64,000 nt of DNA, from NCBI GenBank assembly GCA_035315805.1, contig DATFXN010000053.1, forward strand, positions 25 through 64,024. The letters are read 5' to 3'. Of the stretch, positions 2,048 to 17,771 are shown one piece after another. The position numbers and the translations under genes are program-made. The stretch is from Chthoniobacterales bacterium. GTDB lineage: Bacteria; Verrucomicrobiota; Verrucomicrobiia; Chthoniobacterales; UBA10450. Position 1 is the stretch's first letter, and every line of letters begins with the position of its first letter. A model generated the notes under the pieces. It searched no databases. It saw nothing but the letters and a program-made list of their open reading frames with translations, and had not been told where the DNA came from.

Positions 2048-2231
2048 GTAATCTTAAGATACAATGCCGGCCCGTTATCGGCAACCTGGATGCAACGGCT
2101 CAACAGGCCGTCTGGGCTTCTCTGTCATGCAAAATCCGATATGGAAATATCTGAATGTTTTTGTTTGGATCGAGTTCAATGGAGTAACGCATGCGCCGGC
2201 CTATGTTATGTTGATCGCATCTTCTCCAAAC

Positions 2232-3272
2232 ATGGCTGAGTTGTTTCACCAAAATCGCTTACTCAGACCGCGGCCCGCTCTGATAATCGTTTGTCTTGCG
2301 ATAACCGTTTTCCTTGGATGGGTGGATTATCTCACCGGCTACAAACAGACATTCCTCCTGTTTTACCTTGTGCCGATTGGGCTGGGGACTTGGTTCGGCA
2401 ATTTTTGGATAGGCATGTCGATGTCAATTTTAAGCATCGCGGCTTGGATTATCTCCGACCTCGCGGCCGGCGTGCCCAGTGTCGGGTTGTGGAATATCGT
2501 CATGGCCTTCGGCTCCTACGGCGTCTTCACCAGCCTGCTTTCAAAGCTCCGGACGCTCCTGAATGAGCTTGATCAACGGGTCCGCGATCGGACGGCCGCG
2601 CTGAAACGGGAAATGGCAGAGCGTGAACGCCTCGACCAGGAAATTGCCGAAGTTGCTGACCACGAGCGTCGCCGGCTCGGGCAAAACTTACATGACAGTC
2701 TGGGCCAGCATCTCACCGGCACTGCTCTGGCCGCCCAGGTTCTCCGCGAAAAACTTGCTAATCGCGCGGCGACTGAAGTGGAAGAGGCGGACAAAGTGGT
2801 TCGTTACATTGAGGAAGGAATCGATCTAACTCGGAACCTCGCGCGCGGTTTTTTCTCACCGGAGCTTGAAGCCGACGGATTAAACGTTGCGCTGCACGGC
2901 TTGGCGGCAAACATCGCCGAGCGATTCGGAATTCCGTGTACGTTCAATGGGGATGACGCGGTTCATGTCGGCGACGCCACTACGGCGACGCAACTTTACC
3001 ATATTGCTCAGGAAGCGGTGATGAATGCTGTCAAACATGCCGACGCAAGTAAGATCGATATTGAACTTGCGCGAAGAGGCAAAAGACTGACTCTAATGGT
3101 ATCAGATGATGGTCGCGGATTCCCCGAAGAAATTCCCGACCCGCCCGGTCTGGGGCTGCGTTTAATGGGACACGGCGCTGGTTTAATTGGGGGTAAGCTC
3201 TCAATCACCGGTAATCGCGAGCGGGGGACGCTCGTGACGTGCCAATTAAATACCGCCCAGCCTGCTCATTGA
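2232..3272 (+). CDS. sensor histidine kinase, HisKA_3/NarX-type, with N-terminal multi-TM sensor
   Basis: H-box HERRRLGQNLHDSLGQHLTG and HATPase_c motifs (NAVKHA.., DDGRGF, GLGLRLM). The start is set at the internal ATG 2232 because the upstream part of the ORF (from 2064) looks non-coding. Confidence 0.85.
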   Translation: MAELFHQNRLLRPRPALIIVCLAITVFLGWVDYLTGYKQTFLLFYLVPIGLGTWFGNFWIGMSMSILSIAAWIISDLAAGVPSVGLWNIVMAFGSYGVFTSLLSKLRTLLNELDQRVRDRTAALKREMAERERLDQEIAEVADHERRRLGQNLHDSLGQHLTGTALAAQVLREKLANRAATEVEEADKVVRYIEEGIDLTRNLARGFFSPELEADGLNVALHGLAANIAERFGIPCTFNGDDAVHVGDATTATQLYHIAQEAVMNAVKHADASKIDIELARRGKRLTLMVSDDGRGFPEEIPDPPGLGLRLMGHGAGLIGGKLSITGNRERGTLVTCQLNTAQPAH

Positions 3273-3286
3273 AACCTCGAACACTT

Positions 3287-3967
3287 ATGAATCAAAAATC
3301 ATCCAACGATGTAGCCCGGAAGCGGCAAGTTTTCATTGTCGACGACCATCCGCTCGTTCGCGACGGACTCGCAAACCTAATCAACCAGCAAAGCGATCTC
3401 ACGGTTTGCGGCGAAGCGGAGGACTCGCACGGCGCCATCGCCGGAATCGAATCATGTAAGCCGGACGTCGCTTTGATCGATATTTCCCTCAAAAACGAAT
3501 CCGGCCTCGAGCTAGTGAAAACCCTGCAAGGCCGCTTTCCGCAAGTCGCTCTGATTGTCTTGTCGATGCATGACGAAGCGCTCTATGCCGAACGCGCGTT
3601 GCACGCCGGCGCCCGCGGTTACGTGATGAAACGCGAAACGACGAAAAATGTTCTGACCGCGATCCGGCGAGTCGTAGACGGCGATATTTATGTAAGTGAT
3701 CGCGTCGTTAACACAATCACCAAGCGCATGAGTTCACGCAAAGCTGCGGCTGCTGAGCCGGTTGAACGGTTGAGCGATCGGGAGCTGGAAATTTTCCGCT
3801 TGCTCGGTCAGGGACGAACGCCATCGCAAATCGCGGAAGATCTCCGTCTCAGCTTGAAAACGGTGCAGGCCTACTGCGCGCGCGCGAAAGAAAAATTCGG
3901 AGTGACTTCACTCACTGAATTACTGCGCGCCGCTATTCGCTGGGAAGACGCAATGCATGTGAAGTAG
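3287..3967 (+). CDS. response regulator, NarL/FixJ (LuxR HTH) family
   Basis: Receiver domain (VFIVDDHPLVRDGL..DVALIDISL..) plus C-terminal LuxR-type HTH (LSDRELEIFRLLGQGRTPSQIAEDLRLSLKTVQAY). Confidence 0.9.
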   Translation: MNQKSSNDVARKRQVFIVDDHPLVRDGLANLINQQSDLTVCGEAEDSHGAIAGIESCKPDVALIDISLKNESGLELVKTLQGRFPQVALIVLSMHDEALYAERALHAGARGYVMKRETTKNVLTAIRRVVDGDIYVSDRVVNTITKRMSSRKAAAAEPVERLSDRELEIFRLLGQGRTPSQIAEDLRLSLKTVQAYCARAKEKFGVTSLTELLRAAIRWEDAMHVK

Positions 3968-3968
3968 G

Positions 3969-3979
3969 ATGTCGATCTA
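3969..3979 (+). repeat. intergenic copy of the over-represented word (ATGTCGATCTA variant), 2 nt after the response-regulator stop
   Basis: exact string match; see findings. Confidence 0.9.
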
Positions 3980-4002
3980 ACCGCTGACTGCCTGCCGTCG
4001 CT

Positions 4003-4749
4003 TTAGTGAAGGTGGGTCGACCCGACGCGCGCAGGCCGGATGCTTGCAGCTGCGCCTGCGAGATTTCTGGTGGTCGTTGGCAGGTCGCAGAAATTAGCCA
4101 ATCGCTCCAGCATCGCCGGTGGATTTGCCTGAAGTTCTTCAAACTGCACCCGCCGATAATACGGGAAGTCGGCGAGTTGTTCGGCAGCCTTGAGATAGAT
4201 TTGGACTAGCTGAGCGCAGTAATCGAGGTCCGCCAGGTTTGGGGTCGGCGCGTCCCCGGCCGCCTGGAATTTCAATTCGCGTTCTCGAATACTCGATGCC
4301 GCCGCACGCGTGTTGCGGACAACGTGAACAAGGCGCGCCTGGGGAAAAATCTCGAGCCAGGCCGAAGCAAACAATGTTGTGCGCGGTTCTTTCCAACCCC
4401 AGGGCGCTCCGAAATGTAGCCGCGCGCGCAGCCACAGGCCTTTCGGATTTCGGGAGTAGCCAAAAATCCGGCCGAAATCGCACCGGATACTTGTCCGTAG
4501 ATAGGCAACGCAATCCTGCATACCTTCCGCGGTTCCGATCTGTTTCAAAAATGGCTGCGGATTGTGCCAGGCTGCGCCGACCCGTCGCAAATAGTCCTCG
4601 TGTAATTTTTGTAACCCTCGCGGCTCACAGTGGCTGTCCAGCTGCTGACCAATTTGTAGCCCGAGCAGTTCCAGCGCGTGCGCAATGGCGCTCGTGCCCG
4701 AGCGATGCGCGCCGATGATGAGGACCGGCGGATGATGTCGATCTTTCAT
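4003..4749 (-). CDS. sulfotransferase family protein
   Basis: N-terminal PAPS 5'-phosphosulfate-binding loop LIIGAHRSGTSAI; later VVRNTRAAASS (3'-PB-like). Confidence 0.8.
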   Translation of the reverse strand: MKDRHHPPVLIIGAHRSGTSAIAHALELLGLQIGQQLDSHCEPRGLQKLHEDYLRRVGAAWHNPQPFLKQIGTAEGMQDCVAYLRTSIRCDFGRIFGYSRNPKGLWLRARLHFGAPWGWKEPRTTLFASAWLEIFPQARLVHVVRNTRAAASSIRERELKFQAAGDAPTPNLADLDYCAQLVQIYLKAAEQLADFPYYRRVQFEELQANPPAMLERLANFCDLPTTTRNLAGAAASIRPARVGSTHLH

Positions 4750-4761
4750 GCGAAGGCGCGA

Positions 4762-6600
4762 TCAAGCCGTGTAACCCAAGCGCGCGTCCAAATGCTTGAG
4801 CGCGTCGGCGGCAAATGCCTGGTCTTCCGGCGAGAGGTAATCGCGATAGCCGCCCACTCTCCCGCGGCGAACTTTGAACGATTCCGGATTGCGGACATCG
4901 CGTGAGCGCAGAATTTTCGAATCGAACACGCCGGCTGCTTCCAGCCGTTGCATATTGGCAAAGTCGGAGAACTCGAGGGCGTGTTTGAACGCCTCCGGGT
5001 CCGGCGAACTCTCGCCCAGAGTCGCCAGGATCACGCGGAAGTTCTTTTCCGGCGCCGCGCGCAACGATTCATAATGGACCAAGGTAAAATTCTTGCGGCG
5101 GGCAAATTCAGCGAACCAGTTGTTCATAGTTTTGATGATCGACATGATTCCGTAACGGCGGTCACGCAGCAGATCACCGATGCTTTTCTCCTTTAATTCC
5201 TGTGGCGTTTCAGGGGTACGGTGAACGAGCTGCATGTAGAGCGAAACAAATGCGTCTCGTGGGTCCCGCACCATCAGGATGATGCGGGCCCGAGCCAGCT
5301 CACGCGCGGGCACGAGATATTTGCCGCGAATTCGTTCCCAGAACGTCGCCTTCATTCGCTGCTCAGCGAAATCGTGGGAGAAAATCATCCGCGGAATAAT
5401 GGGTTCGTGGTATCGGTCGGGACGAAGCGTAAATGGCAGGCCGGTGCGCTTGCAGAAATAGGCGCAGAGAAAAGTGCGCACCCAGGTGCGCCCGCTTTTC
5501 GGCACCGAGATTACAACGACATCGCCGCCCGAAAGCTCGCGGGCGCGACTGCTCAGGTTCCATCGACCAAAGCTCCGGCGCCCACCCGAATCGGTTGATT
5601 CTCCGGGAATGCGCGCGACTTCCTGGAGAAGCTTCACATAACCCTCGGCGAAACTCTCCAGCGAATAGCGCGTTTCGATCAGTTCGCGTCCGCGGAGGCC
5701 AAAAGTTCTCCGCAGCTCGGCGTTTTGGATCAAACTGCTGAGCGTGTTGACCCAATCGTCCTGGGTTCGGGCCAGAAAACCATTTTCGCCATGAGAGATA
5801 ATCTTGTTGTTGACGCCGACATCAGAGGCGACGACGGCCGTGCCCATACCCATGTATTGCAAAATTTTGTAACCGCATTTGCCGCGGGTCCAAACCGAGT
5901 CCCACAGCGGCATAATGCCGATATCGAAACTGGCGAGGTTCGTTTGCTCGGTCTCCAATCGCCACGGGTCATTTTCGACGTGCACCTGATCGAGTTGAAG
6001 CGGTTTGTCCGAAACAACTTTCAATTTCAGACCGGGAAACTTTTCCGTTAAGCGCTGCAACGCCGGCTGAATGTGCCGGAGGTAAGGGAGACCGTCGCTC
6101 AATCCCACCCAGCCAATCGTTAAGCCCGGGCGATCGAAGTTCGGTTTCAACTGGTAACGGCGAAGGTCGATCGAAGTCGGCAATATAATCGCGCGACAAC
6201 CGCATGCTTCCGCGAAGCAAGCAAGGAAATCGTTGCCCGCCACTACCGCGGTGCAGTGCCGCACCGTTCGCAGGAATTTCTTGAAATCCTTTCCCCGCAA
6301 CGGGCGCCGGTGTTTTTGGTCGCGAAACATCACCGCATCGTCAAAATCGAAAATGATCCGGCGGTTGGCGCTCTGAAGAAGACCCAGCTCGAACTCGTTA
6401 AAACCGATGGTTTTGAAAAGAACGACCACATCGTGCCGGCGGGCTTCTCTCAGAACCCGCAGGCGTTCGGTTACGCTGGAACGCCGAGTCGGAACCACCG
6501 TCGCCTCAACTCCGAGTGCCGCATAATAATCAAGACAATCCCGCAAACGCAGCCGCGTGCTCGGAGCATTGCCATGTTCGACAACACAGAGAATTTTCAT
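4762..6600 (-). CDS. bifunctional GT4-type glycosyltransferase (N-terminal) / sulfotransferase (C-terminal) fusion
   Basis: N-terminal half is GT1/GT4-like (..GKCGYKILQYMGMGTAVVASDVGVNNKIISHGENGFL..). C-terminal half has VISVPKSGRTWVRTFL (5'-PSB) and MVRDPRDAFVSLY (3'-PB). Start taken at MKILCVV (6600). Confidence 0.8.
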   Translation of the reverse strand: MKILCVVEHGNAPSTRLRLRDCLDYYAALGVEATVVPTRRSSVTERLRVLREARRHDVVVLFKTIGFNEFELGLLQSANRRIIFDFDDAVMFRDQKHRRPLRGKDFKKFLRTVRHCTAVVAGNDFLACFAEACGCRAIILPTSIDLRRYQLKPNFDRPGLTIGWVGLSDGLPYLRHIQPALQRLTEKFPGLKLKVVSDKPLQLDQVHVENDPWRLETEQTNLASFDIGIMPLWDSVWTRGKCGYKILQYMGMGTAVVASDVGVNNKIISHGENGFLARTQDDWVNTLSSLIQNAELRRTFGLRGRELIETRYSLESFAEGYVKLLQEVARIPGESTDSGGRRSFGRWNLSSRARELSGGDVVVISVPKSGRTWVRTFLCAYFCKRTGLPFTLRPDRYHEPIIPRMIFSHDFAEQRMKATFWERIRGKYLVPARELARARIILMVRDPRDAFVSLYMQLVHRTPETPQELKEKSIGDLLRDRRYGIMSIIKTMNNWFAEFARRKNFTLVHYESLRAAPEKNFRVILATLGESSPDPEAFKHALEFSDFANMQRLEAAGVFDSKILRSRDVRNPESFKVRRGRVGGYRDYLSPEDQAFAADALKHLDARLGYTA

Positions 6601-6893
6601 TCTTAATCGCTCAGGCGCGACCATACCATTTTTGGGCGGTCTTTGGTAGGGCGCGGCGCTTGCGCCACCTCTCGGTGGCTAAGACCGACATCAGTCGGGC
6701 GGAATGCTTTTGCGCGCCTCGCACGAAACCTGTTAGCTTGTAGGCGGAGAGTGTTGCCTCCGAGAGCGTGTGCTCCGCATGAAATCTAAACCCAGGCTGC
6801 GAAACCGCCAACGTGTCCCGAGCGACGAACTCGAGCTGCTGTATCAAACAATCGGTTCCATCGGCGATTGGGAGTGCCGGCTCCGATTCGGAC

Positions 6894-7781
6894 TTAACGC
6901 AACGGCCGCGCCACCAAAATTCCGGAATCGCTCCGATAGGTGTAGAGATAGGTGGAAAGGCGTGAATCGACGAGCACGCGGCCATAATTGTGCGGAGCCG
7001 ACGCGTGCATGAAATGCAAAACGCCGTCATTCGTTCGCAGCGCCAGTCCGACGTGCGAGGTGGAGTAAAGTCCGCCGCGTTCGTGTGAAACGATTCCGAT
7101 AATGTCGCCGGTTTGCAGTTTCGACTCGATTTTCGCGACGCGGCCCTTGGGGATTTGATAGAGCGGCCGCCTTGAAACGTCCGCTTCCATTCGCGCAAGC
7201 GGCTCAAGCAACGATTTATTGGCCGCCAGATAACGATAATGCCGCCAGCCTGCGCTCATTTCCCGCGCCGAATGCGGTACGCTCTGTCCACCAAGTTTCG
7301 TCGTCAGGTCTTCCACCAATCCGCGCTTGTTGTTGTCGTAGAGCCAGTCCTCCAAATAATGGAGCCGCGAAAGATATTCGCCTGTGCACACGCCGCCGCG
7401 GTAGCGATCGACTTCGACGTAATGGAGAAAATTTTCCGGCGTCCAATTTTCTTCCGGCTCGTTCAACATCCGCGCAAACGCGAGCGACGTTTCGAAAAAC
7501 GTCCAACAATCCAGTCCGTCAAAATTTACCGACGGTGACTCGATCCGATTGTCGATCTCGAGCGTGTACGACTTGTAACGGGTGCCGGTCAGCGCCTGTC
7601 CCACCGCCGCCGTCCGTTGCCCGATCGGCAGCGATTTCCAATCGTTTTCTTTCGCCAGCGAAACCAGTCGATTGAACTGTGGTTCGCCTTTGAAAATTGT
7701 TTTGAACGGCAGCCGCGACTCAAACGCCGTCGCTGTCACGCAAATCAGGAGTATTGGAACAAGAATTCTCCAAGCCCTCAT
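6894..7781 (-). CDS. secreted DUF1460 (AmiA-like amidase/cysteine-peptidase fold) protein
   Basis: Signal peptide MRAWRILVPILLICVTATA; conserved ..VNFDGLDCWTFFETSLAFARML.. recalled from the DUF1460 family. Confidence 0.6.
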   Translation of the reverse strand: MRAWRILVPILLICVTATAFESRLPFKTIFKGEPQFNRLVSLAKENDWKSLPIGQRTAAVGQALTGTRYKSYTLEIDNRIESPSVNFDGLDCWTFFETSLAFARMLNEPEENWTPENFLHYVEVDRYRGGVCTGEYLSRLHYLEDWLYDNNKRGLVEDLTTKLGGQSVPHSAREMSAGWRHYRYLAANKSLLEPLARMEADVSRRPLYQIPKGRVAKIESKLQTGDIIGIVSHERGGLYSTSHVGLALRTNDGVLHFMHASAPHNYGRVLVDSRLSTYLYTYRSDSGILVARPLR

Positions 7782-7895
7782 AGGTCGGAAACTGAAATCG
7801 AAATTTTCCGGTAATCAAGGGCCCTGTACGGGGACGCTGCTAGCGTCCCTCCTGAAAGATTGGGAAAACAAGCTGCTTCTCCCTACAGTTCGGGT

Positions 7896-8906
7896 TTAGC
7901 GTGTAAATCGGTCCCGTAACGAATATGCCCGCGACTTCAGGAATTCTTTCGGCCGCTCCCCACGAATTGGTTTCACGAAATAGCGCAGCGAACGCTGATT
8001 CAAGCGCGGCTCGTAACCAAATTCAGCCATCAAATCCCGGCAGTGCCATTCCACCCAGCCGATTTCGCCTTCGTGTAAATCATTTTCCCATCGACGGACC
8101 GGAGTGGCGCTGACCTCGGCAAACCGGTCTCCGACCGCGGAGTTGCCCGCCCATGGTCGGCCGACTTTTGTCGGACTGAGTACAATGTCAGGGTCGAAAT
8201 TGATTTCGAGATAGTCGCACACCTTTTGCATGGAAATCTTCGGATCGAGCGCGAGATTTTCGTAACCGATGACGAGGCCGGGAATTTCCCGGTTGCGAAT
8301 TTTCTTCGCCAGGTTTGCTGCAGTCTGCCAGTGCGCGACCACGTAGTAAACCGAGAACCGCCGTGTCTTGCGCGTGTGCTCAAGCGCGATCTGCGCGGCG
8401 AGCAACGCGCGCGGGTCGCGCATCGTTAAGAGCAACTTCGCTTTCGGGAAGCGATTGAAGATTTCCGGAACGTAGTTCCGATTGGCCGGAGTCTTTTCGA
8501 CCCAGCGTTTCACCCGTTCGAGTGGAACGCCCACGACTTCGGCGTACGCTTCCATCATCACCACAAGCAAATCGCGGCTTGCGTTCGATGGATCGAACGC
8601 GACGCGCTCGAACGTCTCGAGAAACTTCTTCTTCGGAAATTCGGCGTAGTCCTGCCGACCTCGCATCGCTTGAAACCCGAAGAGAACGTTGGTCCACGAT
8701 TCCTTGGTTAGATAATCGAACTGCGCCCGTCGCCCCCGGTCGCGATATTTCGTCAGCACGGTCGGGAAATACGCCGTGTCCTGCGGCATCACCAGCAACT
8801 CGGGATGACTATCGAGCAGCGACACCAGCAGCGTCGTCCCCGATTTCGCCGCGCCCGCGATGAAGCAAGCGCGCTCGTCGAACGCCAGTTTTTGTGTCGA
8901 ACTCAT
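7896..8906 (-). CDS. sulfotransferase family protein
   Basis: FIAGAAKSGTTLLVSLLDSHPEL (5'-PSB loop) and LLTMRDPRALLAAQI (3'-PB). Start at internal ATG 8906 (MSSTQKLAF..). Confidence 0.8.
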   Translation of the reverse strand: MSSTQKLAFDERACFIAGAAKSGTTLLVSLLDSHPELLVMPQDTAYFPTVLTKYRDRGRRAQFDYLTKESWTNVLFGFQAMRGRQDYAEFPKKKFLETFERVAFDPSNASRDLLVVMMEAYAEVVGVPLERVKRWVEKTPANRNYVPEIFNRFPKAKLLLTMRDPRALLAAQIALEHTRKTRRFSVYYVVAHWQTAANLAKKIRNREIPGLVIGYENLALDPKISMQKVCDYLEINFDPDIVLSPTKVGRPWAGNSAVGDRFAEVSATPVRRWENDLHEGEIGWVEWHCRDLMAEFGYEPRLNQRSLRYFVKPIRGERPKEFLKSRAYSLRDRFTR

Positions 8907-9050
8907 CTTCTGAGGTGGATCGGCCGCTCCGCGGACGATGTTAAATAATGCGGCTTCGCCGCCTAAAATTAGCATCGAGCAAGGGACTGCTCGATCCACC
9001 TTTTCTTACGCCACTTGGCAGGCCCTGCCAAATGTGATCGTTTGTCCGAA

Positions 9051-9743
9051 ATGCCCGACGTTTTGCTTACTAACTCCGCTGTCGCCGACCGCGCTGAAGA
9101 TTTGCTGCCCGAGTATCGCGCAATCATCCAGAAAATTCCGCCCGAAGCCGGCTTTGGCGGAATCTGGGAAAGCGAAATGCTTTTGTTTTACGCAGCGGTA
9201 AAACCTTTCGCGCCGAAGCAGATTCTCGAATCCGGTCGTGCCCGCGGCAAAAGCACGCTTATTCTCGCCCGCTGTTTTCCGGAATCACGAATGATTAGCG
9301 TCGAGTGTGATCGACAATCCGAAAACGCTACCGCCGCGGAAGCGAAATTGAAGAACGAACAGAATGTCGATCTTCTCTACGGCGATTCACGCGAGATTTT
9401 GCCGGGACGATTGCAAGATGGCGATGCAGTCTTGATCGATGGCCCAAAGGACTTTCGCGCGCTTAAGTTGGCTGTCGATTTTCTCCGCACCAAAAAACCG
9501 TGCGCAGTTTTCATTCACGATTTCCGGCCGAATTCGCCTCAGCGAAAATTCGTCGAGCGCAATTTCCCGAGCGCCTTCTTTGGCGACGATCCACTCTTTC
9601 AACACTTCCAAAGTTTGGACGCGGAACGTGATCCGCGCCCAAATCCGCAAAGGCGTTATGGGATCCTCTGTTGCCTGCCCCCGCGGTTGCCGATTTCGTA
9701 TTGGAAACTGCGCTTCCGACTGCTAACTCACGGCAAGGCGTGA
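9051..9743 (+). CDS. class I SAM-dependent methyltransferase-like protein
   Basis: Rossmann-like ILESGRARGKSTLILARCF..VECD..LLYGDSREIL..DAVLIDGPKD (O-methyltransferase/Methyltransf_24-like). Confidence 0.6.
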   Translation: MPDVLLTNSAVADRAEDLLPEYRAIIQKIPPEAGFGGIWESEMLLFYAAVKPFAPKQILESGRARGKSTLILARCFPESRMISVECDRQSENATAAEAKLKNEQNVDLLYGDSREILPGRLQDGDAVLIDGPKDFRALKLAVDFLRTKKPCAVFIHDFRPNSPQRKFVERNFPSAFFGDDPLFQHFQSLDAERDPRPNPQRRYGILCCLPPRLPISYWKLRFRLLTHGKA

Positions 9744-9784
9744 GTGTTTGATTCGCTGCGACACGCTTATATCGTCCCTCGACT

Positions 9785-10729
9785 GTGCCGAATCCTTTTT
9801 CGAGAAAGCGGAAGATAGTTCGCCACGCGCAGCACGCCGCCGCGAAGAAATCGAAGCGCGTTAAGCTGCGGCCGGGGAGCGAATGGACCAAGCGCAATTT
9901 TCTTACTAGCGTTTGGATCCCATCGCTCTTCACGAAACGTTCCGGCACCCGCGCGCGCCCGTTATTTCCAAAAGTGCAGCCTGGGCAGATTTGCATCACC
10001 TGGATCGGTCACGCCTCATTCCTAATTCAAACGCACGATGCGAATGTCCTGATCGATCCGATTTGGTCGATGTGGCTGAGCGTGATCAAGCGGCTGAAGG
10101 AGCCAGGCTTTCACATTCATCATTTGCCGTCGATTGATTTCGTTCTCGTCACCCACGCGCACTTCGATCATCTCGATCGCCGCACGCTGCGTCTCGTCGC
10201 CGCCGACCAACCAATTGTTGTTCCGGTTGGAGTCGGACGTTTGGTGCATCGGCTCGGATTCAACATTGTGCACGAGCTCGACGAATGGCAGACGATCGAG
10301 CTCGGTCCGTTGCGCGTCTCGCTCACGCCGGCGCATCATTGGGGCGCGCGGTTTCTGGCGGATACTCATCGTGGCTTTGGCGGCTTTGTTATTGGCGCGA
10401 ACGGCCCCTCTGTTTTTCATTGCGGCGACACCGCCTACTTCGAAGGTTTCAAGGAAATCGGCGAGCGTCACGACATCGAGATCGCGCTTCTGCCGATCGG
10501 CGCCTACGATCCGCCGCTTGCGCGCGAAGTGCATATGAATCCGGAGGAAGCCGTGCTCGCGTTCAAAGAATTAAATGCCAAGACCCTAGTGCCGATGCAC
10601 TACGGAACATTCCGTCTCGGCTATGAGCCGCTCGAAGAACCGCTTGAGCGTTTGCGCGAGTCCGCCCGTGTTCACGGAATTGAAGACAAAGTGCTCGTTA
10701 TGACCGAAGGAAGGCCGGTCGTTTTATAG
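9785..10729 (+). CDS. MBL-fold metallo-hydrolase
   Basis: ITWIGHASFLIQ..VLVTHAHFDHLD..FHCGDTAY..PMHYGTF motifs; GTG start. Confidence 0.8.
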   Translation: MPNPFSRKRKIVRHAQHAAAKKSKRVKLRPGSEWTKRNFLTSVWIPSLFTKRSGTRARPLFPKVQPGQICITWIGHASFLIQTHDANVLIDPIWSMWLSVIKRLKEPGFHIHHLPSIDFVLVTHAHFDHLDRRTLRLVAADQPIVVPVGVGRLVHRLGFNIVHELDEWQTIELGPLRVSLTPAHHWGARFLADTHRGFGGFVIGANGPSVFHCGDTAYFEGFKEIGERHDIEIALLPIGAYDPPLAREVHMNPEEAVLAFKELNAKTLVPMHYGTFRLGYEPLEEPLERLRESARVHGIEDKVLVMTEGRPVVL

Positions 10730-10733
10730 TGAT

Positions 10734-10800
10734 CAGTGACCTGTGATCAGTGATCGGCAAGAATGGTGAGCCAACATAGTTCACTGGTCACTGGTCACAG
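10734..10800 (+). promoter_or_regulatory. 22-bp imperfect stem-loop enclosing the ATG (10763) of the downstream membrane-protein gene
   Basis: Arm A 10734-10755 (CAGTGACCTGTGATCAGTGATC) pairs with arm B 10779-10800 (GTTCACTGGTCACTGGTCACAG): 18 WC pairs, 1 GU, 3 mismatches. The arms are built from GTGA(C/T)CAGTGA repeats that start at the upstream TAG stop. Confidence 0.55.
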
Positions 10801-12967
10801 ATCCCTTGAGCGACGCGACTGGCTCAGCGCCTTCAGCGCCGGCGCAATCGTTGTCGCATTTTGCCTTCTTCTCCTTTGGCACGATCCGCTCGTTTTTTGG
10901 AACGACGATTACGAGTTGTCGATCTTGCCGGTATTCGCCGATGTCGCGCGTAGTTGGAGCGAAGGTCACTTGCCGCTACTCAGCCCGCACTCGTGGGTCT
11001 GCAACAATCTCGCCGGCGAATTTCAATACGGAACTTTTTCGATTTTTGTTAACGCAGCGGTCGTTCTGATCTGGAAATTTCCGCTCACGTTTCCTCAACA
11101 AGCCGCTGCGCTTTCGATCACGCATCTTTTCGTTCTCGCTGCTGGCGCGTTTCTGCTCGCGCGCGATCGCAAACTTTCGACGCCGTTATCGATCTTCGTC
11201 GCGCTGATCGCGGCGTTGAATGGCTGGATCATTTGCTGGGGCGCGAGCGATTGGTTCGGGGCGCTCGGCGCGTTCGCATGGTTGCCATGGGCGTGGTGGG
11301 GACTCGAACGCGCTCTTGACCGACAACGAGCTCGCTCGCGATTTCTTTGGGCGGCGCCGTTTGTTTATTTCGTCATCACCGGCGGTTTTCCTTATACGGT
11401 TTTGATGCTGGCGCTTTTGATCGTGTGGTTGTCGATCAGATCACTGTTCGAAATGAAAAGTTGGATGTCGATCTTGCCGATGTTGTTCGGCGCTGCACTC
11501 GGTTTTGGATTATCGGCACCAGCGTGGCTGGCGATTTTGGATTATGTCCACGGTTCCGTGCGAGAAGTGCAACCGCCAAACGTGCATTGGCAATGGATCG
11601 TGCCGTGGCGCGCGTTGGCGGGATTGATTTTGCCGTGCTGGACGGTGCAGTGGGCCGATTTTTCGATGCACTATGTTCCGCACACCGCAACTGAGTTGAC
11701 TAACGGGCTGGTTGCGCCGGCCGCGCTCATCGCCGGCTTCATCTGGCGGCCGCGCCTACTGCTGCGCCGAATGAAGTGGGAGCTTTTCTTGCTCTTACTT
11801 GTGCTCCTGCTCTGTATGATCCCCACGGCGGGCGTCTTTCGCTGGAGTTTTCGTTGGCTGCCATTATTCCATCTCGTTCTCGCGCTTTGCGCAGCGAACG
11901 TATTGCAGATGCGACGCGGTTCGCCAACAGCGGCCGCGTCGGTTTTGCTTTTGATTCTTGTCACGATTCCGATGTCGATCTTTGGTGTGGGCGGCGATTA
12001 CGGCCCAACCACGACGTGGATTTATTTTCAAGTCGCGGTTGTCTGGGCCCTTTGCGAGCAGTTTGTCCGGCCGGTTAGGTTTAGTCACTGGCCGCCGGGA
12101 ATCGTTACCTTCACACTCTTGCTTGCAACTTATCTCTGCATTCCACCGAATTGCGGCGTCCCGAAATACCGTTTCAGTCAACAATTACTCGGTCCGGAAC
12201 CGCTGGATCCGCAGCGGCTTTATTTGAGCATTTATCCAGCGCCGGAATCGAATTATCGCGCCGATGAAAAACCGCGACCGATCGGCCAGCTCGTTAGACT
12301 AGGCAGCACATCCATGTGGGCCGGTTTGCATTTCATAAATGGTTACAGTCCGATCTTGCCCGCCGGTGTTGCGCGCGAATTCGATTTTCGGATTCACGGC
12401 GAGATCAATCTGCACGAAGCCGAATATCTTGTCTGGAACCAATCGGGTCCGAACGGCTTGCTCGCCCAGCTCGGTGTCGATGGACTTGTCGTGGCCTGGG
12501 ATTCACGGATCGACCCGGCCCTTGGTCCGGATTGGGAATTTGTCACCTCAAACGGTGAAGCCGCAGTTTATCATCGAATCGGTCAGCCGTTTGAGCGTGT
12601 GCGGTCCGTTCAGTCGATCGATTCGCGTTCAGAAATGAAATTTGCGCTGGCGGCCGTTTCCCAGATCGAAGATTCAAGAAACTACGTCACGTCGCGTGTC
12701 GATGTGCCAAACGATGGGAGACCAGCGCTACTGACTTTTTCGCGACCGTACTTTCGCGGCTACGAAGCGAAGATCGGGAACGAAAAACTTCGCGTCGATT
12801 CCTATCGGGGTTTGTTTCCGATCGTCGAAGTGCCGCCTGGTTCCCATGGGAAACTCACGGTCGTCTACCGGCCGTGGTGGCTCGTTTTTGGCGGGGGATT
12901 GTCGATCTTTTGCGCAGCAATTTGGTTGATCGGATTTCTTGGCGCGATGCGACCGCGCTTCGCATGA
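10763..12967 (+). CDS. large polytopic membrane protein, YfhO/GT-C-like (putative glycosyltransferase)
   Basis: 734-aa ORF with many predicted TM helices and a C-terminal soluble domain; family assignment tentative. Confidence 0.55.
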   Translation: MVSQHSSLVTGHRSLERRDWLSAFSAGAIVVAFCLLLLWHDPLVFWNDDYELSILPVFADVARSWSEGHLPLLSPHSWVCNNLAGEFQYGTFSIFVNAAVVLIWKFPLTFPQQAAALSITHLFVLAAGAFLLARDRKLSTPLSIFVALIAALNGWIICWGASDWFGALGAFAWLPWAWWGLERALDRQRARSRFLWAAPFVYFVITGGFPYTVLMLALLIVWLSIRSLFEMKSWMSILPMLFGAALGFGLSAPAWLAILDYVHGSVREVQPPNVHWQWIVPWRALAGLILPCWTVQWADFSMHYVPHTATELTNGLVAPAALIAGFIWRPRLLLRRMKWELFLLLLVLLLCMIPTAGVFRWSFRWLPLFHLVLALCAANVLQMRRGSPTAAASVLLLILVTIPMSIFGVGGDYGPTTTWIYFQVAVVWALCEQFVRPVRFSHWPPGIVTFTLLLATYLCIPPNCGVPKYRFSQQLLGPEPLDPQRLYLSIYPAPESNYRADEKPRPIGQLVRLGSTSMWAGLHFINGYSPILPAGVAREFDFRIHGEINLHEAEYLVWNQSGPNGLLAQLGVDGLVVAWDSRIDPALGPDWEFVTSNGEAAVYHRIGQPFERVRSVQSIDSRSEMKFALAAVSQIEDSRNYVTSRVDVPNDGRPALLTFSRPYFRGYEAKIGNEKLRVDSYRGLFPIVEVPPGSHGKLTVVYRPWWLVFGGGLSIFCAAIWLIGFLGAMRPRFA

Positions 12968-14589
12968 AGCAGCTTTCCAAAACAACTCTCGAGCGGTGCG
13001 AATTCGCCGCGGCAATTTTGCTCACGCTTCTTTTAATAACATTCCACATCATCTTCTTTTTCCACGCTGGTCCGCTCTGGCGCGATGAAATCAGCAGCCT
13101 CGCCCTTTCGACCAAACCAACTCTGACTGAATTCTGGAAATCGCTGCCGCTCGATCCATTCCCGGCCTCTTATTTTCTTTTGCTGCGAGGCTGGAACGCG
13201 GTTGGTCTCGGCAGCGGTGATCTAGCCGTGCGCGGGCTGGGTCTGGTAATCGGGCTTTCATTGATCGCGGCGTTGTGGTGGAGTTGTTATTTGATCGACA
13301 AATCCGTGCCGCTCTGGCCGCTCGCATTGTTCGGTTTCAGTCCGCTTGCACTCGAAGGGGGCGATTCGGTTCGGTCGTATGGGTTCGGTTTGATCTGGAT
13401 CCTCCTCGCGTTCGGCTTCATCTGGCGGATCGTTTGCGAGCCATCTCGAAGATCGACAATCGCGTTTGCGTCGATCGTTGCGCTTTTGAGCGTGCAATCG
13501 CTCTTTCCCAACGCGCTCATGCTTTTCGCGCTCGGCGCCGGTGCTGCTGTGATCCTGTTGAAACGCCGCGGATGGCTCGAGCTGTCGTTGATCAGCGGCA
13601 TCAGCGGAGTCGCCGCCTTATCTCTTCTCTTCTATCTGCCGATCATTTACGCGACGCGTGATTGGGCGAAAATTATCGCGAACAAAAACGATGTCGGGAG
13701 TGTGCTGGGAGTTGGGCGCGATGCCATTGCTGATGCTGGTACTCTTGCGAAATGGATCTGGTTCGTGCTCGGCGCCGGCTTGCTCGTGTCGTTCTTGTTT
13801 GCACTTTCGGGACGACTCGTTGCGGCTCTTGATCTAAAGCGCGACCGAATGCTGTTTGCAGGCGCGACGCTGTCGGTCGCCATCGGCGCGACGATTGTTT
13901 TTCTTTGCGCGGCGCAGTATTTGATTTTTCCACGCTATTTCTTGCCGGCAATGGCGGTTGCCGCGCTGTGCATTCACTCTTTTTGGAGCGCGCTGCCGAG
14001 TCGAGTCGCGATCCGAGCGACCAGCCTTTTTCTCGCCATCGTCGCTGCGGGGACATCGATTCATCCACTTTATCGGGGCGCCAACATGAGGATGACCAAT
14101 TGCGATCAAATTGCGGCAGCGCTCGAACAACGCGCTAACTCTGAGGACTTGATCGTCGTCACGTCATTTTTGTATGGCGTCAGCTTTCAACGTTACTATC
14201 GCGGCAACGCAACTTGGGTCGCAGTGCCGCAGGTGGCAGATTTCAGTTTGCATCGCTGGGATTTGTTGAAAGAAGCAATGGCGCGGTCAGACCCGGTACT
14301 GCAGTTGTTATCCCGTGCTGAGACTGTTCTCCGCAGCGGCCACAAAGTTTTTCTCGTCGGCAAGCTCGGACCACCGCCCGTCGAACAACCGGAACCGTTT
14401 CCGCCCGCGCCGAAAACGGAGTTCGGGTGGCAGATGGAACCATATCTCGCACAATGGAAATCAGAGCTGACCTATTGGATCGAGCATCACGCCCTTCACG
14501 GAACCAATTTGTCGATCGAAGAAACGCAGTTGGTGAACCCCTTGGAGCACCTGGGCGTGTTCGAGGTCTCCGGTTGGCGTGAACGCTAG
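12964..14589 (+). CDS. GT-C-like polytopic membrane protein (putative glycosyltransferase), paralog A
   Basis: ATGA overlap with the upstream gene. N-terminus has ..FFHAGPLWRDEISSL.. (acidic first-loop motif). About 10 TM helices and a conserved C-terminal domain (TNCDQIAAAL..FQRYYRG..HRWDL..SGHKVFLVGKL). Confidence 0.55.
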   Translation: MKQLSKTTLERCEFAAAILLTLLLITFHIIFFFHAGPLWRDEISSLALSTKPTLTEFWKSLPLDPFPASYFLLLRGWNAVGLGSGDLAVRGLGLVIGLSLIAALWWSCYLIDKSVPLWPLALFGFSPLALEGGDSVRSYGFGLIWILLAFGFIWRIVCEPSRRSTIAFASIVALLSVQSLFPNALMLFALGAGAAVILLKRRGWLELSLISGISGVAALSLLFYLPIIYATRDWAKIIANKNDVGSVLGVGRDAIADAGTLAKWIWFVLGAGLLVSFLFALSGRLVAALDLKRDRMLFAGATLSVAIGATIVFLCAAQYLIFPRYFLPAMAVAALCIHSFWSALPSRVAIRATSLFLAIVAAGTSIHPLYRGANMRMTNCDQIAAALEQRANSEDLIVVTSFLYGVSFQRYYRGNATWVAVPQVADFSLHRWDLLKEAMARSDPVLQLLSRAETVLRSGHKVFLVGKLGPPPVEQPEPFPPAPKTEFGWQMEPYLAQWKSELTYWIEHHALHGTNLSIEETQLVNPLEHLGVFEVSGWRER

Positions 14590-14592
14590 CAA

Positions 14593-16215
14593 GTGAGAGC
14601 TCTCCCCAAACCGTCGGCGCTGACGTCATGTGAATTTTGGGGCGCGATTTTGCTGACGTTGTTTCTGGTGGTTGTGCATACCCGCTTGTTGCTCCATGCC
14701 GGCGGGCTTTGGCGAGACGAGGTCAACAGTTTGTACGTGGCGACAACCCCCACTCTGAAAGACTTTCTTGATTCGCTCGTGTTCGATCCGTTTCCGATCC
14801 TGTTCGTGTCGGTTCTCCGTATCTGGGTTGTCCTCGGCTTGGGAAACAGCGATTTCAGTTTGCGCCTCCTTGGGTTTTTGATCGGAACGTCGCTGGTTGG
14901 CACGGTTTGGCTGAGTTGCCGCTTGATCGGCAAAGAACGGGCGGCGCCGGTTTGGCCACTGGCACTTTTCGCGCTCAATCCGTTGACCATTGTCGAAGGA
15001 GACTCCTTGCGCGGTTATGGCCTCGGGCTAATCGGGATTCTTCTGAGTTTCGCGTTGGTCTGGCGGCTCACATTCCGGCCGTGGCAAACCGGAACGGTTG
15101 TCGCCGCGACCATCGCCGCGTTGATCGCAGTGCAGTCGCTTTACCTGAGCTCGCTCGTCGTGTTCGCGATCTGCGTTGCCGCCGTCGCGGTCGCCGTTAA
15201 ACGAAAGGATTGGGCTCGCGCCCGCGCAATTCTCGCGGTCGGAGCAATTGCAGCGCTTTCTCTGCTTCCCTACGCCGGTATCTTGCGAAGGGCTCACGAA
15301 CAGTTGGCCCTGCAAAGCAATCCCAAAACCGTTGCGGATGAAGCCCGTTCGCTGATGTCGATCTTCGCCTCCGGCAAATCTGGCGTGGCCTATGTCTGGA
15401 TGTTGATCTTCGCCTGCGGCTTGATCCCGCTCCTGCTGCCGCGGTCGCGCCGCTACTTGCTCGCTTGCATCAAGAACCCCAGTGATGAACTGCTGTTCAC
15501 GTTCATCGTCGTAGCGGTTGGCGCGATCGCCACTTTCGGCTTTTTGTTCAGCTCCGGTTTGTCCGGCTCCTCCTACCGGCGGCCGTTGCTGGCGGCAGCC
15601 AGTCTCGCGATCCAGCTTGCTTACACGGGGTTACGGAGAAACCCCAGAGCAGTAGTCGCTAATTTGGTCGGCGTCGGACTAGTGGCCACGACGTTTGTGC
15701 CGGCTGCCTATCATCGCTCGCAAGTCCGGAGGACGAATTGCGATCTGGCGGCGGCGGCGGTTGCCAAAGCCGCTCATGTTGATGATTTCATCGTGGTGAT
15801 GAAGTTTACGCACGCGGTTACGTTTCAGCGTTACTATCACGGGCCGGCCCGGTGGACATCAATCCCGGCGGTTTCGGATCACAAGCAGCACCGCTGGGAC
15901 CTGGCCCGAGCGGCGTTGATGAGCGCTGCTCCAATTCAAGATATTCTTTTGCGGATCGAGCAAGAATTAAGAGCCGGGCACAAAGTTTTCCTGGTCGGAA
16001 AATTTCCTCGGTCGGAGCCGGACCCACTTATTGTCGCGTCTCCAAGTCAAAATCCGTGGCGGCTCGAGTTTTACTTGGACAATTGGCGGAGGCAGGTTGC
16101 GAACCTGCTTAGGCAACATGCCGTTCAATGCGCGCAAATCCCATTGAATCAAACCCAGCCCGTAAATCCAGGCGAGAACGAAGAGCTGTTCGCGTTTTCC
16201 GAATGGCGCGATTAG
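14593..16215 (+). CDS. GT-C-like polytopic membrane protein, paralog B of 12964-14589
   Basis: Same architecture and motifs (LLHAGGLWRDEVNSL; TNCDLAAAAV..FQRYYHG..HRWDL..AGHKVFLVGKF); GTG start 4 nt after the upstream stop. Confidence 0.55.
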   Translation: MRALPKPSALTSCEFWGAILLTLFLVVVHTRLLLHAGGLWRDEVNSLYVATTPTLKDFLDSLVFDPFPILFVSVLRIWVVLGLGNSDFSLRLLGFLIGTSLVGTVWLSCRLIGKERAAPVWPLALFALNPLTIVEGDSLRGYGLGLIGILLSFALVWRLTFRPWQTGTVVAATIAALIAVQSLYLSSLVVFAICVAAVAVAVKRKDWARARAILAVGAIAALSLLPYAGILRRAHEQLALQSNPKTVADEARSLMSIFASGKSGVAYVWMLIFACGLIPLLLPRSRRYLLACIKNPSDELLFTFIVVAVGAIATFGFLFSSGLSGSSYRRPLLAAASLAIQLAYTGLRRNPRAVVANLVGVGLVATTFVPAAYHRSQVRRTNCDLAAAAVAKAAHVDDFIVVMKFTHAVTFQRYYHGPARWTSIPAVSDHKQHRWDLARAALMSAAPIQDILLRIEQELRAGHKVFLVGKFPRSEPDPLIVASPSQNPWRLEFYLDNWRRQVANLLRQHAVQCAQIPLNQTQPVNPGENEELFAFSEWRD

Positions 16216-16235
16216 CTCGCCGCCGCGCCGATCCA

Positions 16236-17771
16236 TCAGCTCGCGACCGTAAAAATTTCCACGGCCTGCTCGACACCTTTGACCATCTGCGGCGGTAGCG
16301 CTCGCAACGACGCAACTCGGTTCAATGCATCCCGCGTCGCTTTGCTGATCAGCAAACTCGTCCCGAGCATTTTGTTCAGCGCTTCGATTCGCGATGCCAC
16401 GTTTACAGTGTTGCCGATCACCGTGAACTCCATTCTTTCCGGCGAGCCAATGCTGCCGACAATCGCGGGACCGGTATTGATTCCGATGCCAATTTGAATC
16501 GCTTCTTCGCCTCGCGCCGCCAGTGCGCTGTTGAATCGCTCCATCGTGCGTTGGATCGAACAGGCTGCCCCCAGCGCCTGGTCGGCGTGGTTCCGGCTAT
16601 TCCTGCCAATCCCGAACAGCGCCATAAAACCGTCGCCGAGAAATTTGTTGATCATGCCGCTGTGTTCGCCTTCGACGGTTTCCACCATCGCGCGCAAGAA
16701 TTCATTCAAAAGCCCGACAGCTTTGGTTGGAGATAAATGCGCCGCGCGAGCTGTGAACGAACGAATGTCAACAAACATGACTGTGATTTCCTGCTCGCTT
16801 CCGCCAAGCCCGGGGTCGCGCGACAAAATTTCCTCGGCCGCTTTGCGGCCGACATGCGCGCCAAAGGTTTGTCGCAGCTGTTCCTTTTCGCGCAAGCCCT
16901 GCACCATCGCGTTGAATTCGCCGATGAGCGATCCGAATTCATCCGCGCGACGCACCGGCACTTCCACGTCGAGGTTGCCGTCGGTCACGGCCTGCGCCGC
17001 TTCGCGCAATTGATTCACCGGTTCGGCCACCGAACGCCCGATCAAGAGAGCAGAGAAGAGCGCGAAGGCGATGCCAATCGCGCCGACAAAAAGACCAAAC
17101 AGTTTCGGGTTAATTCCGGGCGAGGCCGGCGCGAAGATGAGAAGCAACAATGAAGCAATCGGGCAAATGCTGGCCGAAATCGCCCACATCAAGCCACGAG
17201 TTCGGAGCGAGATCGGATGAATTCCTTTCAATCGATCGGGCCGAACGCCCTGAAGCAGCACCGCCAGCAATCCGCGTTGGGCCGCCCATTCGATGACAAA
17301 GAAACTTTGCGTTATTGCGATGAAACCGGAAACGCCGAACGATATTGGAAAGTGCCAGAGAATCTGCGCGATCATCGGCCGCCCAGTGAGTGACAACGAA
17401 ACTAAAAACACGATTGCGCCGAGAAACCAGGCCGCTCCGGAAATCGTCGCGCCGTACCACGGCAAATGGACAACGCGCCGGCGGATTGCCTCCAGGTTGG
17501 AAGCATCAACTTTCTCACCGCGAACAAACCGGTCAAAGGTCGGGCGGACCGAACGAATCAACGAAATCCAAATCGCGAACGCCGCCGGATACGCGATTGC
17601 GTTCCAAAAAATTACCGTCGCAACAAAGCGCTCCTTCAACCCCGCGGCGACCAGCAGTGGATCGACGACGACGCTGTTGTACCAAATGTTGAACGCGCTC
17701 CCGAGCAATTGCGGAATCAGGGGCGCAAGCGCGGTGACGAGCAGCGGGTGTCGCTTCAACGCAGCGTCCAT
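16236..17771 (-). CDS. membrane-bound class III adenylate/guanylate cyclase with HAMP domain
   Basis: Six N-terminal TM helices, a HAMP-like linker, and a cyclase core ITVMFVDIRSFTA..KFLGDGFMALFG..GINTGPAIVGSIGS. Confidence 0.85.
   Translation of the reverse strand: MDAALKRHPLLVTALAPLIPQLLGSAFNIWYNSVVVDPLLVAAGLKERFVATVIFWNAIAYPAAFAIWISLIRSVRPTFDRFVRGEKVDASNLEAIRRRVVHLPWYGATISGAAWFLGAIVFLVSLSLTGRPMIAQILWHFPISFGVSGFIAITQSFFVIEWAAQRGLLAVLLQGVRPDRLKGIHPISLRTRGLMWAISASICPIASLLLLIFAPASPGINPKLFGLFVGAIGIAFALFSALLIGRSVAEPVNQLREAAQAVTDGNLDVEVPVRRADEFGSLIGEFNAMVQGLREKEQLRQTFGAHVGRKAAEEILSRDPGLGGSEQEITVMFVDIRSFTARAAHLSPTKAVGLLNEFLRAMVETVEGEHSGMINKFLGDGFMALFGIGRNSRNHADQALGAACSIQRTMERFNSALAARGEEAIQIGIGINTGPAIVGSIGSPERMEFTVIGNTVNVASRIEALNKMLGTSLLISKATRDALNRVASLRALPPQMVKGVEQAVEIFTVAS

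Follow-up and report, generated by a model that had tools for sequence, protein, structure and literature searches.

A conserved set of three sulfotransferase domains and a GT4-like glycosyltransferase in a probable mosaic of envelope-related modules from a Chthoniobacterales bacterium

Do the genes of a sulfotransferase-rich block in a Chthoniobacterales genome specify one pathway, or several that happen to be neighbors? The block lies at positions 4003-16215 of a 64,000-nucleotide (nt) stretch of DNA (assembly GCA_035315805.1, contig DATFXN010000053.1), referred to here as the window. Chthoniobacterales count among the most abundant bacteria in soil, and the lineage is poorly cultured; to our knowledge, few bacterial carbohydrate sulfotransferases have known substrates. 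A preliminary description of this DNA had proposed that the whole block, together with a two-component system upstream, encodes an uncharacterized route to a sulfated, possibly methylated surface glycan or glycolipid. An open reading frame (ORF) map and Pfam scans, which outside the cluster covered ORFs of at least 200 amino acids (aa) across the window, confirmed the gene content and the coordinates given in that description. The reading that we favor, with a little more than even confidence, is that the block is a mosaic of neighboring envelope-related modules and not a single pathway. The conserved functional unit is predicted to comprise three different sulfotransferases and one GT4-like glycosyltransferase. 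A route to a sulfated glycoconjugate could thus be retained for this sulfotransferase/GT4 unit; the placing of the GT-C/YfhO-like proteins, the metallo-beta-lactamase (MBL) hydrolase, the methyltransferase and the DUF1460 protein in the same pathway could not.

All three sulfotransferase (ST) domains, which had been described as being of the 3'-phosphoadenosine-5'-phosphosulfate (PAPS) type, scored above the Pfam gathering cut-offs, and the 5'-phosphosulfate-binding (5'-PSB) loops quoted for them were found in place together with 3'-phosphate-binding (3'-PB) segments. ST-A (248 aa; 4003-4749, minus strand) matched Sulfotransfer_3 (E 6.4e-18; 66.2 bits, cut-off 27) and carries the 5'-PSB loop GAHRSGTS at 4690-4713 and the 3'-PB segment VVRNTRAAASS. 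ST-C (7896-8906, minus strand, within an ORF open to 8999) also matched Sulfotransfer_3 (E 1.5e-23; 84.6 bits, cut-off 27), with the 5'-PSB loop AAKSGTT at 8832-8852 and the 3'-PB segment MRDPRALLAA; its likely start at 8906 was taken from homologs of 334-339 aa. The third domain (4762-5550, minus strand; approximately aa 351-612 of a fusion protein) matched Sulfotransfer_1 (1.6e-18; 67.5 bits, cut-off 22). It has the 5'-PSB loop PKSGRTW at 5482-5502 and the 3'-PB segment VRDPRDAFVS (RDPRD..S) and additionally carries an SHD catalytic-histidine motif and an RRGRVGGY (RRGxxGG) motif; the motifs of this domain are conserved in the alignment of the fusion family (alignment A3). The three STs are mutually very divergent and, as their best pairwise E value is only 0.002, they are not recent duplicates. 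The PDB sequences nearest to the fused domain are SULT2A1/2B1 and the plant enzymes SOT16/18 (approximately 1e-6), and the solved sequences nearest to ST-C are TPST1/2 (2e-10); the N-terminal part of ST-C also gave an NCBIfam match to NoeE (1.5e-6) that was weak and far under the cut-off. A hydropathy scan found no transmembrane (TM) segment in ST-A, ST-C or the fusion, and all three proteins are predicted to be cytoplasmic.

The fusion ORF (4762-6624, minus strand) is 620 aa as opened and has matches to Glyco_trans_1_4, Glycos_transf_1 and Sulfotransfer_1. Since its homologs are 612 aa long, translation probably begins at Met9 (6600), which gives the same length. Its GT4-like domain, of the GT-B type (5596-6600, minus strand; approximately aa 1-335), exceeded the cut-offs for both Glyco_trans_1_4 (3.8e-11; 43.9 bits, cut-off 27) and Glycos_transf_1 (1.9e-7; 31.2 bits, cut-off 26.4), so that the GT4 glycosyltransferase reported earlier is present as a GT4-like domain fused to an ST. 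The N-terminal half of the GT4 part had no Pfam match. Motifs of the GT4-domain family are PSTRLR, FDFDDAVMF and RGKCGYKILQYMG, and in alignment A3 the last of these, RGKCGYKILQYMG, is conserved at the expected position of the E-x7-E motif. The best PDB matches of the domain were PglA and PimA, enzymes with lipid-linked acceptors, while NCBIfam searches with its C-terminal half returned trehalose synthase, sucrose-phosphate synthase, MshA and BshA, all weak and far below the cut-offs.

At 90% identity, homologs of the fusion formed more than 50 clusters, which share 74-92% identity with the query; the named ones were all from Chthoniobacterales. In a related protein, P0055 (positions 10001-11824 of locus L093), the order of the two fused domains is reversed (ST-GT4), and in more distant relatives the GT4 and ST domains are separate genes (alignment A3). 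The opposite domain order in P0055 suggests a second, independent GT4/ST fusion. In another protein, P0108 (locus L006), the ST domain is joined to a different N-terminal domain that has no family assignment. Stand-alone homologs of the GT4 domain (52, 47 and 42% identity) were found in three different loci, in each case among GT9 heptosyltransferases, further GT4 enzymes and methyltransferases, and two of the three loci also contain a Wzy_C O-antigen-ligase-type gene.

Locus L093 is informative with respect to which genes of the block belong together. Here, the ST-C ortholog (54-60% identity) abuts the ST-GT4 fusion and the ST-A ortholog (53%) follows directly, and no Methyltransf_24 (MT24), MBL, YfhO-like or GT-C gene and no NarL-type two-component pair was found within 10 kb; a DUF1460 gene is present approximately 7.6 kb from the ST/GT4 unit. 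Wherever the sequence of a locus reaches far enough (L001, L003, L008, L061 and L093), an ST-A ortholog is found beside the fusion, and in the window the fusion and ST-A genes are separated by 12 nt. Three divergent STs within 5 kb that are contiguous again in a rearranged relative are more than chance. The earlier proposal that conservation of the gene neighborhood be used as a check had a divided outcome: the ST/GT4 unit was kept through rearrangement, whereas the full block was found only in close Chthoniobacterales relatives.

A further recurrent neighbor was noted in these comparisons. Homologs of the fused ST domain repeatedly lie beside an NMT1/SsuA-type ABC importer (L001, L003, L006, L091, L093 and the context of P0097), which is often accompanied by a phosphate-type or alginate-type porin, HPr and an AmiA-like gene. 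In one context, AmiA, NMT1, ABC, permease and ST genes share a strand, and the ST gene follows the one before it after 8 nt. In the window, the NMT1/SsuA-type transporter has been lost and a gap of 293 nt (6601-6893) is left. The importer beside the ST may relate to sulfur supply or to an imported substrate.

The mechanism that we propose for this first module (ST-C, the GT4::ST fusion and ST-A) would be cytoplasmic and PAPS-dependent throughout. The GT4 domain would move a sugar from a nucleotide sugar to a membrane-anchored acceptor. Fusion of a GT4 domain to a PAPS-type ST points to sulfation of the transferred sugar or of its immediate neighbor, and the two further STs suggest multiple sulfate esters, so that the fused and the two stand-alone STs would next place as many as three sulfate esters on that sugar or on neighboring ones. 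The product would be a strongly anionic glycoconjugate; given the ST/GT4 association across rearrangement and the two fusion orders, a sulfated glycoconjugate is a reasonable product. The most likely acceptor would be an oligosaccharide of the lipopolysaccharide (LPS) core type or another lipid-linked oligosaccharide, and a sulfated LPS-core-type or other lipid-linked glycan is the outcome that we favor, with low confidence in this acceptor in particular. PAPS would be supplied by genes elsewhere in the genome. Consistent with the earlier statement that the window holds no genes for PAPS synthesis, no Pfam match of this kind was found among window ORFs of at least 200 aa, no APS-kinase or ATP-sulfurylase motif was found in the window, and tblastn gave no match to a CysC query.

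The two-component system upstream, which had been correctly described as a NarL-type pair, consists of a histidine kinase of the NarL-partner type (2232-3272, plus strand; HisKA_3 1.4e-10, HATPase_c 1.3e-13) and a NarL/GerE-type response regulator (3239-3967, plus strand; Response_reg 4.8e-25, GerE 7e-14). According to a hydropathy scan, the kinase has approximately four TM segments and no large periplasmic sensor domain. Its ORF opens at 2064 and Met57 corresponds to 2232; a tmRNA gene directly upstream of the ORF makes the long start at 2064 unlikely. This tmRNA gene (1688-2047, minus strand; Rfam 163.9 bits) encodes the tag ADYEGLALAA. The response regulator gene is convergent with ST-A, across a gap of 35 nt. 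Among the relatives, it is the kinase that adjoins ST/GT4 genes in L001, L003 and the P0097 context, and its partner response regulator that does so in L008 and L061; the adjacency persists where the GT4 gene is inverted relative to the pair. It is plausible that the two-component system controls the ST/GT4 module, and this membrane-embedded pair would probably be its regulator.

The second module would consist of an MBL hydrolase, a YfhO-like protein and one or two GT-C paralogs, encoded on the plus strand. The MBL protein (9785-10729) is a cytoplasmic MBL-fold hydrolase that matched Lactamase_B_2 (1.8e-39), as expected from the preliminary description; it carries the metal motif THAHFDH and its gene is the first of the MBL-YfhO-GT-C string. 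Among solved structures, human NAPE-PLD (4qn9), a lipid phosphodiesterase, is nearest to it (E 2.1e-32 over residues 64-301). In all close relatives, the YfhO-like gene comes after the MBL gene. The spacer between these two genes (10729-10762) contains two copies of GTGATCAGTGA in the window, and the same spacer in L008-L012, L018 and L021 is 50-170 nt long, with a hairpin of lineage-specific tandem heptamers and their complements (e.g., CACAGAT repeats followed by ATCTGTG repeats, or CGCCGAA and GGGCGTT); this hairpin could be a repetitive extragenic palindrome (REP)-like element or a terminator.

The three large polytopic proteins had been reported as GT-C/YfhO-like. This was borne out by the fold of the 541-aa protein (12964-14589) and by paralogy for the 540-aa protein (14593-16215; 37% identity to the 541-aa protein); it was not borne out by Pfam, as none of the three reached a Pfam or NCBIfam threshold and the 734-aa protein (10763-12967) stayed below that of YfhO. 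The 541-aa and 540-aa paralogs had no Pfam or NCBIfam match even at E<=10 or E<=0.1, none of 120 listed homologs of the 541-aa protein had a precomputed Pfam domain, and a profile of the GT-C family (alignment A1) found nothing meaningful among PDB sequences. By comparison, the AlphaFold2 model of the 541-aa protein, built from a 35-member alignment, had a predicted local distance difference test (pLDDT) score of 92.8 and a predicted template modeling score (pTM) of 0.91. When this model was compared with the PDB by Foldseek, the top 32 matches were all GT-C enzymes, with TM-scores of approximately 0.45-0.5; the best were DPY19 (1.2e-7) and ArnT (3.3e-6), and PglB, AglB, Pmt4, ALG3/9/12, Emb, AftA/B and PimE were also matched. 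In the 35 aligned sequences (32-70% identity; A1), W39-R40-D41-E42 just after the first TM helix is invariant. GT-C enzymes have conserved acidic residues in the first extracytoplasmic loop, and the WRDE residues provide them here: the invariant loop-1 sequence G-x-x-W-R-D-E is found at 13075-13089 in the 541-aa protein, and LWRDE at 14707-14721 in the 540-aa paralog. We are confident, on the basis of the model, that the 541-aa protein adopts a GT-C fold, and a GT-C assignment of the 540-aa protein would follow from their paralogy. By analogy, the GT-C proteins should move sugars from polyprenyl-phosphate donors at the outer face of the inner membrane; the second module would be a glycosylation unit of its own at the periplasmic face, drawing on polyprenyl-phosphate sugars that are made elsewhere.

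Further analysis of the WRDE proteins identified 117 confirmed genome loci, with the motif as the search pattern. The family was found in Verrucomicrobiota, Acidobacteriota, Planctomycetota, Rokubacteria, Myxococcota, Desulfobacterota, Eisenbacteria, Binatia and others, and also in metagenome-assembled genomes of Bifidobacteriaceae. The second GT-C copy is variable, with relatives that have one copy only or a copy of the other type. WRDE GT-C genes were often seen in tandem or beside other GT-C genes (e.g., in L088). On the strength of the structural model, the WRDE proteins represent a candidate new glycosyltransferase family for which Pfam has no model.

The 734-aa protein is a putative GT-C protein of a divergent, YfhO-like type. 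Its own match to YfhO, restricted to the C-terminal part, reached 13.9 bits (E 0.018), below the gathering threshold of 28.5 bits. Its orthologs matched PF09586 at E<=0.1 in 25 of 25 cases, with a best value of 4.6e-15, and one of ten distant representatives of the family matched PF09586 over the TM region (3.8e-15). The protein has an invariant N-D-D-Y after the first TM helix, an extracytoplasmic beta-rich domain and a C-terminal TM helix. Its AlphaFold2 model was poor (pLDDT 49, from a shallow alignment of sequences with 70-79% identity) and Foldseek with that model gave no match at E<=0.001; a profile of the YfhO-like family (alignment A2) found nothing meaningful among PDB sequences. A comparison of the 734-aa and 541-aa families by hhalign gave a probability of 3.5%, which means that homology of the two membrane-protein families is not supported by sequence. 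From the YfhO matches of its orthologs, on which the placement depends, the 734-aa protein appears to be a divergent relative of YfhO and not a clear member of that family.

Two other genes lie between or beside these modules, and their linkage to either module is uncertain. The DUF1460/AmiA-like protein (6894-7781, minus strand) was confirmed as a secreted amidase-like protein of the NlpC-P60 type by a PF07313 match (2.4e-33; 115.8 bits, cut-off 27) and an N-terminal hydrophobic, signal-like segment; in the PDB it matched 2p1g (2.5e-23) and 4h4j (2.3e-16). Pfam describes this family as N-acetylmuramoyl-L-alanine amidase-like; the protein is probably a peptidoglycan enzyme outside the sulfation chemistry. 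The class I S-adenosylmethionine (SAM) methyltransferase, likewise present as reported, belongs to Methyltransf_24 (9015-9743, plus strand; PF13578 5.1e-7), is divergent from ST-C and matched the O-methyltransferase 2gpy (1.4e-5). In relatives (L003, L001 and the P0097 context), a gene for 5-formyltetrahydrofolate (5-FTHF) cyclo-ligase lies on the opposite strand between the MT24 and MBL genes; in the window, this interval is 41 nt only (9743-9785). ORF 9511-9999 (minus strand) was considered as a candidate for the cyclo-ligase gene and had no Pfam match, so that this gene is absent here.

The preliminary description spoke of two divergent operons with 4-nt overlaps or gaps. On the plus strand, an ATGA start/stop overlap joins the 734-aa and 541-aa genes (12964-12967; the start of the 541-aa gene at 12964 was placed from homolog lengths) and 3 nt separate the 541-aa and 540-aa genes (14589/14593), in agreement with that view. 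On the minus strand, there are gaps of 114 nt and 293 nt (6601-6893), where relatives have other genes. In relatives, the block is interrupted by an NMT1-type ABC transporter, by a porin, PAS kinase and HPr, by an insertion sequence (IS) element and by the 5-FTHF cyclo-ligase gene on the opposite strand; these interruptions make the description as two divergent operons too simple. A promoter and terminator scan of 1600-18000 found one promoter (6.1 in shuffled sequence) and 29 terminators (25.1 in shuffled sequence), and as these counts are at the shuffled expectation or below it, operons are not definable from that scan. An Rfam scan found only the tmRNA and one tRNA, with no riboswitch near the cluster.

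The full co-linear block (GT4-ST, AmiA-like, ST-C, MT24, MBL, YfhO-like and GT-C) was found at nine species-representative loci and in three metagenome contexts; all of the genome loci were within Verrucomicrobia and the named ones were Chthoniobacterales. The flanks are conserved to the same degree. Downstream, a HAMP-adenylate/guanylate cyclase gene (16236-17771, minus strand), convergent with the last GT-C gene, served as a control for background synteny and was syntenic in L007, L010, L012 and L018; upstream, PMSR/TrmB genes were conserved in two relatives. Because unrelated flanking genes are as conserved as the block, neighborhood conservation as proof of one pathway was rejected.

This bears directly on the alternative that all eleven genes form one pathway for a sulfated, methylated glycan or glycolipid that is built in the cytoplasm and subsequently finished or transferred on the periplasmic side by the three GT-C/YfhO enzymes. 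The co-linearity of the block in nine species-level loci and in metagenome contigs, the tight spacing of the plus-strand string, and a distant GT4 locus (L089) with GT4s, Methyltransf_24, GT2, a small EamA-type protein and a large DUF6798 membrane protein would all fit such a pathway. However, the adenylate cyclase is as syntenic as the genes of the block, the block is split in relatives by the transporter, porin, kinase, IS element and cyclo-ligase genes, and L093 keeps three STs and the GT4 without the plus-strand genes nearby. Moreover, tblastn and phmmer found no ST, MT24, MBL, AmiA or YfhO-like homolog within 10 kb of any of approximately 67 GT-C loci outside the close clade, and the neighborhoods of two annotated examples were unrelated or GT-C-rich. 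In addition, no GT2 polyprenyl-phosphate sugar synthase (Glycos_transf_2) and no GtrA/EamA match was found among the ORFs scanned, and Pfam scans of 1-22.5 kb and the rest of the window found no priming phosphoglycosyltransferase, flippase, ABC exporter, polymerase, co-polymerase or outer-membrane export protein. We therefore regard a single pathway as unlikely. A classical exopolysaccharide or capsular polysaccharide cluster was rejected, as there are no Wzx, Wzy, polysaccharide co-polymerase (PCP), outer-membrane polysaccharide export (OPX) or priming genes.

The product of the ST/GT4 module could also be a soluble sulfated glycoside, such as a compatible-solute disaccharide or a secreted signal comparable to trehalose-2-sulfate or sulfotrehalose. 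All proteins of the module are soluble and predicted to be cytoplasmic, small-molecule SULTs are nearest to the fused ST, export and polymerization genes are lacking, and a membrane-sensing kinase would fit an osmotic or desiccation response. The NCBIfam matches to trehalose synthase, sucrose-phosphate synthase, MshA and BshA point the same way, but they are far below the cut-offs and concern the generic C-terminal half only, whereas PglA and PimA use lipid-linked acceptors and all three stand-alone GT4 relatives lie in LPS-core/O-antigen-type loci; a soluble product is accordingly judged to be very unlikely. Even less probable is that the STs have no common substrate, with ST-C acting on peptide or protein tyrosine, ST-A on a small molecule, and their clustering reflecting inherited gene order. 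The proximity of ST-C to TPST1/2, the divergence of the three STs, the block without ST-C in L001 and the restriction of the carriers to related Verrucomicrobia speak for separate substrates. Yet PF13469, which includes TPST, is broad, so that this likeness is non-specific; no precursor-peptide or secretion genes are nearby; ST-C, ST::GT4 and ST-A are directly contiguous in L093 despite rearrangement; and two independent GT4/ST fusions couple at least that pair. A RaxST-like tyrosine-sulfation role for ST-C was given low weight, as ST-C adjoins ST::GT4 in L093 and there are no peptide or secretion genes near.

The preferred reading, a mosaic of envelope-related modules with a sulfotransferase/GT4 unit at its center, has to be held against several observations that weigh on the other side. 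All carriers of the ST/GT4 unit are related Verrucomicrobia, and its conservation is therefore partly due to shared ancestry; ST-C is not in the block of L001, and the two-component system is not beside the ST/GT4 unit in L093. The canonical E-x7-E motif of GT4 enzymes is not recognizable by eye in the GT4 domain. The nearest relatives of the fused ST and of ST-C appear to be small-molecule cytosolic SULTs and tyrosylprotein sulfotransferases, respectively, and carbohydrate sulfotransferase is a label that we infer. The link to the LPS core comes from three homolog contexts, 42-52% identical and without an ST. Finally, the GT-C string is adjacent in approximately ten species-level genomes, and a functional link between the modules is hence possible.

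The window also holds a group of envelope-lipid genes, two of which speak for the preferred reading. Approximately 15-19 kb downstream of the cluster, the window encodes an ArnT/PMT-like GT-C protein (30754-32532, minus strand) and a lipid A acyltransferase-GT9 heptosyltransferase fusion (32948-35008, minus strand). A PAP2 phosphatase (24052-24789) and an LPG_synthase_TM protein (24872-25879) are encoded closer to the cluster. Farther away (52076-55078, minus strand), a 1000-aa protein combines an MBL/RMMBL exonuclease-like N-terminal part with a complete ATP-dependent DNA ligase, and thus holds ligase-associated damage-response components in one polypeptide.

With four domains in three genes, the ST/GT4 unit offers a compact and testable route to a new sulfated envelope molecule, and the sulfation hypothesis can be tested without the GT-C genes. 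Should a sulfated LPS or glycolipid prove to be its product, the finding would be relevant to envelope charge, metal binding, desiccation tolerance and phosphorus economy in soil. A more detailed picture, which we offer as speculation and consider distinctly unlikely to be right as a whole, is that the unit puts two or three sulfates on one sugar of the LPS core or of another lipid-anchored glycan, giving a polysulfated envelope glycolipid whose negative charge comes from sulfate in place of phosphate or uronate, under two-component control, and that, independently, the WRDE proteins are a new and widespread GT-C family. In the literature, we found no description of STs in Chthoniobacter or its relatives, nor of a bacterial glycosyltransferase-sulfotransferase fusion. 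ST-containing glycan loci are already known; the GT::ST fusion is the part for which we found no described counterpart.

Among these known loci, the synechan xss cluster of Synechocystis sp. PCC 6803 combines STs of the PF00685 and PF13469 subfamilies with glycosyltransferases and a controlling two-component system; it also includes Wzx, Wzy and PCP genes and eight glycosyltransferases, and its product is a secreted polymer (PMC8205485). The window resembles this cluster in having several STs of different subfamilies beside a glycosyltransferase and a two-component system. It differs in that it has one cytoplasmic glycosyltransferase and a GT::ST fusion, lacks genes for polymerization or export, and carries a NarL-type pair where the xss cluster has XssS/R/Q; since neither a priming transferase nor a flippase, polymerase or exporter is present, a secreted polymer of the synechan kind is unlikely. 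Another point of comparison is provided by the rhizobial and mycobacterial carbohydrate STs NodH, NoeE, LpsS and Stf0, which use PAPS in the cytoplasm to sulfate a sugar of a lipid-anchored or lipo-oligosaccharide molecule. The STs of the window have no significant full-length similarity to these enzymes, which are single stand-alone STs, whereas the window has three, one of them fused to a glycosyltransferase. LPS core loci, with GT9, GT4 and a WaaL-type ligase, are where the nearest stand-alone relatives of the GT4 domain are found; in contrast to the window, those loci have no STs, and the module lies at least approximately 17 kb from the window's own GT9 and lipid A genes.

For the second module, the nearest parallels are the CsbB/GtcA/YfhO system of Bacillus and the ArnC/ArnEF/ArnT system, in which GT-C/YfhO-type enzymes decorate envelope polymers on the outside with polyprenyl-phosphate sugars (PMC11898649). 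The model of the 541-aa protein matches the structures of ArnT, PglB and PMT enzymes, in keeping with these three-component systems. Unlike them, the cluster lacks both a GT2 lipid-sugar synthase and a small flippase, its paralogs belong to no Pfam GT-C family, its 734-aa protein is below the YfhO threshold, and a NAPE-PLD-like MBL protein is the conserved partner.

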